DNA of 64,000 bases from Calditrichaceae bacterium (GTDB taxonomy: Bacteria > Calditrichota > Calditrichia > Calditrichales > JBFXGD01). Shown one piece after another: positions 6,156-7,171 of this stretch. A model generated the notes under the pieces. It ran no database searches. It was not told the DNA's origin and saw only the letters and a list, made by a program, of their open reading frames with translations. Every line of letters starts with the position of its first letter. The first letter of the stretch is position 1. The stretch lies in NCBI GenBank assembly GCA_050173015.1, contig JBFXLE010000017.1, forward strand, positions 1-64,000, written 5' to 3'. A program made the position numbers and the translations under genes.

Positions 6156-6296
6156 TTAATCAGACACTTCTTCCGCGGCTGAATCTTTTTCTTTACTGGC
6201 TGAATGATCAATTATATCTGATATGATAATTACAACAGAGGCGATGGTAGCCACAACTTCGGCGATACCCTTGATGTCGGTGCTTTTTATATTCAC
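6156..6296 (-). CDS. Micro-protein type B, 46 aa (MNIKSTDIKGIAEVVATIASVVIIISDIIDHSASKEKDSAAEEVSD)
   Basis: Manual translation. AAGGAG SD then GTG; homologous to the frames at 6515-6655 and 6884-7012. Confidence 0.65.
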   Translation of the reverse strand: MNIKSTDIKGIAEVVATIASVVIIISDIIDHSASKEKDSAAEEVSD

Positions 6297-6321
6297 TTTA
6301 TGCTCCTTTACTCTCTAATTT

Positions 6322-6456
6322 TTAATCGTTTGAGTCATTATTTTTTGGTTTATTTTTTTCGTCCTTTTCCATATTATTAATGACTTCACCAACGGTTTTG
6401 GCGATACCTTCGATGATATTTACCACGATTTTTACTTTTTTCATTTTGTCTTCCAT
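6322..6456 (-). CDS. Micro-protein type A, 44 aa (MEDKMKKVKIVVNIIEGIAKTVGEVINNMEKDEKNKPKNNDSND)
   Basis: Manual translation. TAAGGAG SD then ATG; paralog of 7034-7171. Confidence 0.7.
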   Translation of the reverse strand: MEDKMKKVKIVVNIIEGIAKTVGEVINNMEKDEKNKPKNNDSND

Positions 6457-6514
6457 TGATTTGCTCCTTATAAAATTGATGCCCGGTGATCTCTTTATAT
6501 GTAAAGAGTGGGGT

Positions 6515-6655
6515 TTATTGGCTTTTTTTAATTTTGGCGCCGGAATCTTTGCCTTTTGTATCGATTTGTTCCACTGTTCCCGCGATAACAGCGATGACGC
6601 TCGCGATTGTTGCCACTATTTCTACAATGTTTTTGATTTTTTTGATATCGAATTC
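6515..6655 (-). CDS. Micro-ORF type B (..EFDIKKIKNIVEIVATIASVIAVIAGTVEQIDTKGKDSGAKIKKSQ), no canonical N-terminal start
   Basis: Open frame homologous to 6156-6296, preceded by a GGGAGGTG SD. The start codon is unclear. Confidence 0.45.
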   Translation of the reverse strand, partial: EFDIKKIKNIVEIVATIASVIAVIAGTVEQIDTKGKDSGAKIKKSQ

Positions 6656-6676
6656 ACACCTCCCGCCAGGTTAGAA

Positions 6677-6781
6677 TTATTGAGCTTCTGAATTTTCCTG
6701 TTCTGATTTATTTTCTTCTTCATTATCCATGTTTTTAATGACTTCACCAACAGCTTTGGCGATACCTTCGATAATTTTCAT
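6677..6781 (-). CDS. Micro-protein type A (MKIIEGIAKAVGEVIKNMDNEEENKSEQENSEAQ; frame extends upstream)
   Basis: Paralog of 7034-7171; the AAGGAG SD lies further upstream near 6822-6827. Confidence 0.5.
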   Translation of the reverse strand: MKIIEGIAKAVGEVIKNMDNEEENKSEQENSEAQ

Positions 6782-6883
6782 AGCGATTTTGATATGTTTT
6801 GAAGTTATTTTGAAAGCTCCGCTCCTTTAAAATTGATGCCCGGTGATCTCTTTATATGTAAAGAGTGGGATTTATTGGCTTTT

Positions 6884-7012
6884 TTAAATTTTGGCGCCGG
6901 AATCTTTGTCTTTTTTATCGATTTGTTCCACTGTTCCCGCGATAACAGCGATGACACCAGCGATTTTTGCCACTATTTCTACAATGTTTTTGATTTTTTT
7001 GATATCGAATTC
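6884..7012 (-). CDS. Micro-ORF type B (..EFDIKKIKNIVEIVAKIAGVIAVIAGTVEQIDKKDKDSGAKI), no canonical N-terminal start
   Basis: Near-identical copy of 6515-6655 with an earlier stop. Confidence 0.45.
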   Translation of the reverse strand, partial: EFDIKKIKNIVEIVAKIAGVIAVIAGTVEQIDKKDKDSGAKI

Positions 7013-7033
7013 ACACCTCCCGCCAGGTTAGAA

Positions 7034-7171
7034 TTATTGAGCTTCTGAATTTTCCTGTTCTGATTTATTTTCTTCTTCATTATCCATGTTTTTAATGACA
7101 TCACCAACAGCTTTGGCGATACCCTCGATGATATTTACCACGATTTTTACTTTTTTCATTTTGTCTTCCAT
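7034..7171 (-). CDS. Micro-protein type A, 45 aa (MEDKMKKVKIVVNIIEGIAKAVGDVIKNMDNEEENKSEQENSEAQ)
   Basis: Manual translation. AAAGGAG SD then ATG. Confidence 0.7.
   Translation of the reverse strand: MEDKMKKVKIVVNIIEGIAKAVGDVIKNMDNEEENKSEQENSEAQ

Follow-up and report, generated by a model that had tools for sequence, protein, structure and literature searches.

Which proteins, if any, are encoded by a run of very short open reading frames (ORFs) set inside a cas locus? The question is raised by a 64,000-nucleotide (nt) stretch of DNA from a Calditrichaceae bacterium (contig JBFXLE010000017.1, positions 1 to 64,000; hereafter the window), in which six ORF-like segments of two types, A and B, occupy positions 6156–7171. 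The A-B-A-B-A-B order of these segments on the minus (operon) strand, first described in a first-pass annotation of the sequence, was confirmed, and the Shine-Dalgarno (SD)-like sequence that it placed upstream of each segment was found as GGAG before all six. Judged from codon usage and from the pattern of substitutions between copies, the six frames appear to be coding, at least historically. Our interpretation, which is plausible but tentative, is that they form a lineage-restricted two-gene cassette of small, single-helix, membrane-active proteins that has been tandemly amplified and that resembles type I toxins.

Architecture of the micro-ORF array

The repeat region as a whole covers 6156–7250 on the minus strand and comprises 2.5 to 3 units when aligned as three units with MAFFT; within it, a tandem repeat with a period of 357 base pairs (bp) was delimited on the same strand at 6349–7249 (2.5 copies, 88% matches). 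In each unit, a spacer of about 65 bp, in which an AT-rich hairpin of 7 bp and an SD are found, is followed by the A micro-ORF; a further stretch of about 24 nt with a second SD then separates A from the B micro-ORF. In the three-unit alignment, the similarity between units reaches past the limits of the ORFs. Identity between units is 93–95% over the spacer and the initial 87 nt of A, and divergence is far greater in the remainder. The 5′ end of spacer 1 repeats the final codons and the stop codon of a B copy. In the direction of the operon, the elements are as follows, with lengths in amino acids (aa).

7172–7249, minus strand: spacer 1, with the AT-rich 7-bp hairpin at about 7205–7222 and the SD of A1; the three spacer copies are nearly identical
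7034–7171, minus strand: A1, 45 aa, amphipathic helix and acidic tail; ATG start with the SD GGAG 7 nt upstream; codon-usage score 0.55 bits per codon
6884–7009, minus strand: B1, 41 codons from a TTC at 7007–7009; SD GGAGG at 7016–7020, then 6 nt, then the TTC
6815–6883, minus strand: spacer 2, the same element as spacer 1 in the unit alignment
6677–6823, minus strand: A2, frame open from 6823; its sole canonical start is an ATG at 6781 (34 aa), without an SD
6515–6652, minus strand: B2, 45 codons from a TTC at 6650–6652; same translation-initiation region as B1
6457–6514, minus strand: spacer 3, placed by the unit alignment
6322–6456, minus strand: A3, 44 aa; ATG start with an SD; tail diverged from that of A1
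6156–6296, minus strand: B3, 46 aa, a diverged B copy; GTG start 6 nt after AAGGAG

The sequence motifs that the first-pass annotation had assigned to A and B were borne out in the alignments. Its description of the array as hidden holds for A2, B1, and B2; A1, A3, and B3 are already present in a public protein collection as predicted proteins P0001–P0003, each a singleton from one contig.

Evidence that the frames are coding

Codon usage was scored with a log-odds model trained on 1192 long ORFs of this genome. The six proposed frames score 0.37–0.57 bits per codon, compared with 0.24 ± 0.11 for 45-codon pieces of real genes and a 95th percentile of 0.02 for off-frame sequence, and the five alternative frames of each micro-ORF have scores that are near zero or negative. 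The differences between copies also follow codon position. A1 and A3 differ at 22 sites, distributed 9/0/13 over the first, second, and third positions (an ungapped MAFFT alignment of the tail moves one of these to position 2), and the changes in the tail always replace a polar or charged residue with another polar or charged residue. B1 and B3 differ at 53 of 123 aligned bases, 14/12/27 by codon position (P = 0.006), and B2 and B3 differ at 63 bases (17/15/31). The ratio of the proportions of nonsynonymous and synonymous differences (pN/pS) between B1 and B3 is 0.50 in the proposed frame versus 0.86–0.95 in the other two frames; for B3 against B1 and B2 overall, the corresponding values are 0.5 and 0.86–1.03. 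B3 is 52–57% identical in DNA to B1 and B2, and three features persist in both B lineages: a helix that is hydrophobic, the spacing A-x-I-A-[GS], and a tail with K-x-KDS. The earlier description of the last B copy as diverged in DNA with its protein pattern retained is therefore upheld, and the selection on the protein that had been proposed from it is supported by the codon-position differences and by codon usage.

The open frames are weak evidence by themselves. Eleven stop-free stretches of at least 41 codons were counted on the array strand versus 2.98 ± 1.38 in 2000 shuffles, but the units are copies of one another and other frames of the same strand are also open for 42–50 codons.

Predicted properties of A and B

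The best 19-residue Kyte-Doolittle window reaches 2.20–2.35 in B1–B3, which is transmembrane (TM)-like. The corresponding window in A reaches 0.38–1.47, and A combines this modest hydrophobicity with a hydrophobic moment of 0.61–0.65. AlphaFold2 predicts a single helix for each peptide, with predicted local distance difference test (pLDDT) values of 93–98 for residues 1–30 of A, 65–68 for the A tail, and 86–89 for residues 11–30 of B. Both helices contain small-xxx-small spacing. The N-terminus of A is conserved and its C-terminal tail is acidic and fast-evolving, K, D, E, and S abound in the tails of B, and the net charge is −4 for A1, −5 for A2, neutral for A3, and −5 for B3. Of the suggestion that A and B are membrane-active or helix-bundle peptide pairs, the amphipathic A, the TM-like B, and the single helices hold up in these calculations, and membrane activity is a prediction drawn from them. 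Co-folding of A with B gave a score of 0.02, which counts neither for nor against pairing.

The units were interpreted as a cassette of small membrane proteins because B shows four features that have been used to search for type I toxins (PMC2887945, in the portion available). All six frames have 41–46 codons, below the 70-aa limit of that search; a TM region is predicted in B and not in A; the tails of B provide a polar or charged C-terminus; and tandem copies lie in one intergenic region, with similarity extending beyond the ORFs, in a junction at which kin carry no array. As far as the same portion of PMC2887945 describes them, the tandem type I toxin-antitoxin loci ldr/rdl, ibs/sib, and zorO/orzO of E. 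coli resemble the array in that B has fewer than 70 aa, a single TM helix, and a C-terminal end that is polar or charged, and in the presence of several copies per intergenic region, the narrow lineage, and the expansion of the region relative to kin. Unlike those loci, the array bears no sequence relation to a known family, has two ORFs per unit, and is co-directional with the operon in which it lies.

If this interpretation is correct, the transcript of the operon would be translated at A1, A3, and B3. The B peptide would become inserted in the cytoplasmic membrane, and A would bind the membrane surface or B, or would act as a leader ORF that governs the translation of B. The cassette would then behave like a type I-toxin-like small membrane toxin, with a dose that would depend on the number of copies and on poor start codons (the TTC of B1 and B2). 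Its position among cas genes would most likely be opportunistic, reflecting a permissive intergenic site in a defence island and not any function in CRISPR.

A leader ORF governs the translation of a small membrane toxin in hok/mok/sok. The array resembles that system in that a well-initiated A precedes the poorly initiated membrane ORF of B1 and B2 by about 24 nt, and in that a promoter-like site on the opposite strand faces A. It differs in that A and B do not overlap, A has a protein-level constraint of its own, and B3 has a good SD and a GTG start of its own. The promoter-like sites in question (TTCACA, 16 nt, AATTAT) lie on the plus strand at 7010–7037 and 6653–6680, in the A-B junctions of units 1 and 2, and point into the antisense of A. 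Also on the plus strand, a stem followed by six U is found after unit 1 at about 7195–7243, with a fold that is not above chance (z = −1.05).

Start codons and origin of the initiation regions

The first-pass annotation had listed six micro-proteins of about 45 codons. The frames exist as described, but a canonical start (ATG, GTG, or TTG) is found at the homologous position in only three of the six, A1 (7171), A3 (6456), and B3 (6296). In B1 and B2, MAFFT aligns a TTC with the GTG of B3, and the only canonical start available to an ORF is an internal GTG, which would yield products of 29 and 33 aa. In A2, the first ~13 codons (about 40 nt) are replaced relative to A1 and A3; the SD is kept, and the next ATG is 38 nt further on. 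The intact set consists of one full pair (A3-B3) and one A (A1), and translation of the other three copies would need something unusual.

A run of seven A residues lies five codons into B1 (6994–7000) and B2 (6637–6643). A −1 frameshift on this run, starting from the SD-abutting GTG of B1 and B2, would bring the shifted frame into register with B3. This was judged unlikely because the GTG follows GGAGG by 1 nt and so lies inside the SD pairing, because MAFFT pairs the GTG of B3 with the TTC, and because a neighbouring 74-aa gene likewise has an SD, 6 nt, and a TTC without a slippery run. A read-through fusion of A1 and B1 was also rejected: the two share a frame across TAA-TTC-TAA, yet A3 and B3 lie in different frames. 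The 74-aa gene and the two genes on the other side of the array are the following.

5854–6078, minus strand: conserved 74-aa gene just past the array, the downstream neighbour of DUF4258 in relatives; four homologues
7269–7592, minus strand: DUF4258 gene directly upstream of the array, RelE/ParE-superfamily toxin-like (PF14076, 5.1e-08)
7677–8735, minus strand: Cas_NE0113 / Csm6-type CARF protein, from family library matches

The placement of DUF4258 in the RelE/ParE superfamily follows PMC11980606, in the part available. The TTC of the 74-aa gene (6076–6078) stands 6 nt after AAGGAGG, and no in-frame ATG, GTG, or TTG occurs before codon 12. It aligns with an ATG in three homologues and with a TTC in the fourth, where a GTG lies in frame three codons further upstream; a search for more homologues returned only the known four among 86 genomes of the class, together with two GTDB loci. 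By hand count among the differences listed, 18 of 24 variants of the gene in metagenome run X2 and all four in the X4 contig fall at third codon positions. The 74-aa gene is therefore under purifying selection despite having no canonical start at its conserved N-terminus. The TTC could be a non-canonical start, or the product could be N-terminally shortened; in E. coli, non-canonical codons initiate at 0.01–3% of the level of AUG, according to the part of 10.1101/063800 available.

From its SD through its third codon (8726–8746), the NE0113 gene, which lies 1.5 kb upstream, agrees with A1 (7162–7182) and A3 (6447–6467) at 20 of 21 nt. The genome contains five occurrences of this motif, of which three are here. 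The SD, 6 nt, and TTC of B1 and B2 match the initiation region of the 74-aa gene, a motif that occurs four times in the genome, again with three here. The ribosome-binding sites of the micro-ORFs thus look as if they had been copied from two neighbouring genes, and the cassette appears to be the product of local assembly or homogenisation, because its initiation motifs match those neighbours and are otherwise rare in the genome.

Search for relatives

Protein collections were searched in two ways. A1, B3, and a B profile, run against a word index of 5.8 billion proteins, returned only the locus itself, and an exhaustive HMMER search of 1.84 billion representatives, made with the A profile only, returned A itself and one repetitive 930-aa protein that matches 12 positions of the profile eight times. 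Only the locus itself was recovered from GTDB genome contigs searched with A. No relative was found in IMG/VR or in Joint Genome Institute (JGI) metagenome contigs, each searched with A and with B, and phage and plasmid DNA collections held no relative of the array. Six-frame translations of 60 related genomes contained no match to the A or B profile (0 of 60; best E values 0.057 and 0.048), and in the genome itself the matches are confined to this locus. The best feature scores in the ESM Atlas were 0.85 for A and 0.88 for B, both for unnamed clusters and both under the 0.9 level taken as a lead. Frame-preserving homologues, the lack of which the first-pass annotation had said would speak against its proposal, are therefore present as paralogous copies within the array and absent outside the locus in the collections searched. 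Exact matches of 16–17 nt to the spacer on contigs C9 and C32 of the genome were rejected as related elements given their unrelated contexts and unlike flanks, and a match on contig C38 was rejected as A/T-rich low-complexity sequence at a gene end.

The array as a probable lineage-specific insertion

A DUF4258 homologue is present in 12 of the 60 other genomes, and nine of those loci were read. In four of the nine, the DUF4258 gene is followed by a 74–78-aa gene and then a TPR gene, without the array. The junction between DUF4258 and TPR seems to be a variable spot. At one relative locus (L015 of genome G026, 1810–2775), this interval holds small ORFs of 56 aa, 40 aa (hydrophobic), and 139 aa, which stand in place of the 74-aa gene alone.

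Metagenome contig X4 is 96% identical to the window over 5665–6089. Read on the minus strand, its loose end appears to be the C-terminus and stop codon of DUF4258, 2 nt before the GGAGG of the 74-aa gene; if this reading is right, X4 comes from a close relative in which this junction has no array. The array has the appearance of an insertion specific to this lineage, placed between the DUF4258 gene and the 74-aa gene, and would therefore not be a needed partner of DUF4258 or of the TPR protein. It is present in contigs of two sequencing runs from different studies, X1 and X2; X1 may be the source sample of the window itself, and X2 also holds variant units. In a marine run, X3, B2 and a portion of A2 (6514–6754) are covered by a 241-nt contig that shows a single difference; a contig over the start of the TPR gene has only about 88% identity, and the rest of the stretch compared is uncovered. 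The X3 contigs could be explained by two separate organisms or by transfer of the unit.

Assessment of alternative interpretations

Several results weigh against a cassette of small membrane proteins. In all searches run, no relative was found outside this locus, and hence there is no independent conservation. Pfam and NCBIfam gave no match above cut-off (best Lipoprotein_6, E = 0.033; DUF6750, 0.0022; MBP-1, 0.0042), PHROGs gave E values of 0.03 or worse, PADLOC gave none, and PDB sequences gave nothing significant. Three of the six copies are without a canonical start at the homologous position. The codon-usage score in part reflects the K/E/I-rich composition of the peptides, and the paralogue comparison amounts to two effectively independent lineages, unit 3 versus units 1 and 2. 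The ratio of nonsynonymous to synonymous rates (dN/dS), a comparison between copies that the first-pass annotation had called for, is about 0.9 overall between A1 and A3 and about 3 in the tail (15 nonsynonymous changes and 1 synonymous). Typical type I loci are free-standing, but the cassette runs with the genes around it as part of an operon, and opposite-strand promoter-like sites are not commoner than in shuffles (7 versus 5.6 ± 2.5).

The main rival to the membrane-protein cassette, though an unlikely one in our estimate, is that the frames are young or decaying proto-genes without function, which arose when the initiation regions of neighbouring genes were copied by illegitimate recombination onto A-rich sequence, were duplicated, and are now eroding. 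This would account for the match of A1 and A3 to the NE0113 gene at 20 of 21 nt and of B1 and B2 to the 74-aa gene, with three of the five and three of the four genomic occurrences of these motifs lying here, as well as for the three copies without a start, the A tail that evolves at or above the neutral rate, the lack of homologues in the searches run, and the other frames of the strand that stay open for 42–50 codons. It would not account for the distribution of the 22 differences between A1 and A3, of which none (or one) falls at a second codon position, for the third-position excess in B, or for codon usage that, in the very frames proposed, scores above the average for real genes. Nor would it explain why B lineages that are 43–48% diverged in DNA have remained open, with helix, small-residue spacing, and KDS tail all retained. 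The same tracking of codon positions by substitutions makes it very unlikely that the functional product is the RNA, as a repeated small RNA or antisense RNA in which the ORFs are incidental. That idea could draw on the 93–95% identity of the spacer and first 87 nt of A between units that are otherwise far more diverged, and on the piece of unit 2 that is nearly identical in the marine run, in which the flanking TPR region is about 88% identical. However, Rfam covariance models gave no match at E up to 1 over 5000–8500, and the folds of the spacer RNAs are, for both strands, not better than those of shuffled sequences (z from −1.05 to +0.13; −0.97 for spacer 1).

The remaining alternatives take their cue from the neighbouring genes or from the peptides themselves. 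The array lies inside the accessory block of the cas locus, on the operon strand between NE0113/DUF4258 and TPR/Cas1, and no terminator-like site was found on the minus strand in 6100–7300. A and B might accordingly be type III effectors or safeguards, such as abortive-infection membrane toxins released after the action of RNases activated by cyclic oligoadenylate (cOA), or a CreTA-like toxin held by an RNA resembling a CRISPR RNA. Membrane-acting type III effectors and CRISPR-repressed toxins are both on record in the parts of the literature available. As in CreTA, a small toxic-looking element lies between cas genes (PMC8501985, PMC9458426, 10.1101/2024.01.05.574328, as far as available), and like the CARF-TM effectors, the array would add a membrane-directed component to a type III accessory region (10.1101/2025.11.13.688252, 10.1101/270033, likewise in part). 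Nevertheless, a CRISPR-linked function is quite improbable. Judged from the abstracts, the known CreTA cases use DNA-binding type I effectors and not type III, and this locus carries accessory genes of type III type; the CARF-TM effectors are large and carry a cOA-sensing CARF domain, whereas A and B have 41–46 aa and no sensor domain. Unlike CreTA, in which a pseudo-spacer beside the toxin is bordered by one or two degenerate CRISPR repeats, the array has no CRISPR-repeat-like sequence in or beside it: the seven repeat consensuses of the genome, aligned locally on both strands to 6090–7300, scored 24 at best versus 18.8 ± 2.9 for shuffles, an alignment that strongly degenerate repeats could escape. 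Related cas accessory blocks are without A or B, and the interference genes are not in this locus. There is no evidence of a CRISPR link beyond position.

Adjacency is likewise what suggests that A and B are protein partners of their neighbours, and the first-pass annotation had offered them as antitoxins for DUF4258 or as ligands of the TPR protein. Both proposals lack support in the comparison with kin and have very little probability. DUF4258 homologues occur in 12 of the 60 genomes and A or B in none of them, the conserved follower of DUF4258 is instead the 74-aa gene, with its strong third-position excess, which stands between DUF4258 and TPR in four of the nine loci read, and the X4 relative apparently does without the array. 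An equally remote prospect is that the peptides are exported, as leaderless two-peptide bacteriocins, as relatives of the phenol-soluble modulins (PSMs), or as precursors of ribosomally synthesized and post-translationally modified peptides (RiPPs) with a conserved N-terminus and a variable C-terminus. PSM operons and leaderless bacteriocins are also tandem amphipathic micro-ORFs of 20–45 aa with their own SDs, A has the expected conserved N-terminus and variable C-terminus, and small-xxx-small spacing is present in both helices. The operon, however, has no transporter, export, immunity, or modification gene; A1–A3 and B3, with net charges of −5 to neutral, are unlike cationic bacteriocins; the tails are acidic and contain no Cys and few Ser or Thr; no sequence or family match was found in Pfam or NCBIfam; and the phylum and genomic setting differ from those of the known systems.

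A more elaborate scheme would combine several of these elements in a dosage-tunable two-peptide membrane toxin of a type III accessory operon, gated at initiation by a TTC behind a perfect SD, an arrangement also seen in the neighbouring 74-aa gene, and made only when a cOA-activated RNase or the DUF4258 RNase remodels the operon mRNA. We consider this scheme a long shot; if true, it would provide a new output for abortive infection and a natural start codon under selection that is not even near-cognate. Returning to the cassette of small membrane proteins, the peptides, if made, would constitute a new small-membrane-protein family without a detectable relative, set in an operon of CRISPR accessory genes in a phylum that has been little studied, and a clean natural example of the birth and amplification of micro-genes. 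If the ORFs are not made, the array is a caution that tidy series of SD-preceded micro-ORFs can be by-products of local duplication. A side question in either case is why a conserved gene under purifying selection and two micro-ORFs carry TTC where their homologues have ATG or GTG.

The surrounding CRISPR locus

The array is surrounded by a cas locus, as the first-pass annotation had recognised; the locus includes a clustered regularly interspaced short palindromic repeat (CRISPR) array, Cas2, Cas1, a Cas6-like protein, Csx1/Csm6, and NE0113, all encoded on the same (minus) strand. Over the first 6 kb, the order is the CRISPR array, Cas2, Cas1, a PolA-like protein, the TPR protein, and the 74-aa gene, after which the micro-ORF array begins; beyond it come DUF4258, the Cas_NE0113/Csm6-type CARF protein, a Csx1/Csm6 CARF-HEPN protein, and the Cas6-like protein. 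The CRISPR locus is type III-like and its accessory genes are of type III type. Its repeat array is the following.

55–1650: CRISPR array with a 37-nt repeat

Seven CRISPR-like repeat arrays were found in the genome, on contigs C17, C38, C27, C32, C5, C10, and C43. The 37-nt repeat of the window is also present on C38, where it lies beside a 540-aa ORF that reads as Cas10-like from a GGDD motif seen in the sequence alone. Because of this recurrence next to a Cas10-like ORF, the interference module of the system is probably on another contig than the window. Within the adaptation module, the PolA-like polymerase (479 aa, 3162–4601, minus strand) shares 52 nt with the start of Cas1. Its matches are to the C-terminal region of DNA_pol_A (8.8e-13) and to the RTasPolA model of PADLOC for defence-associated reverse transcriptases (DRT; 1.9e-12).

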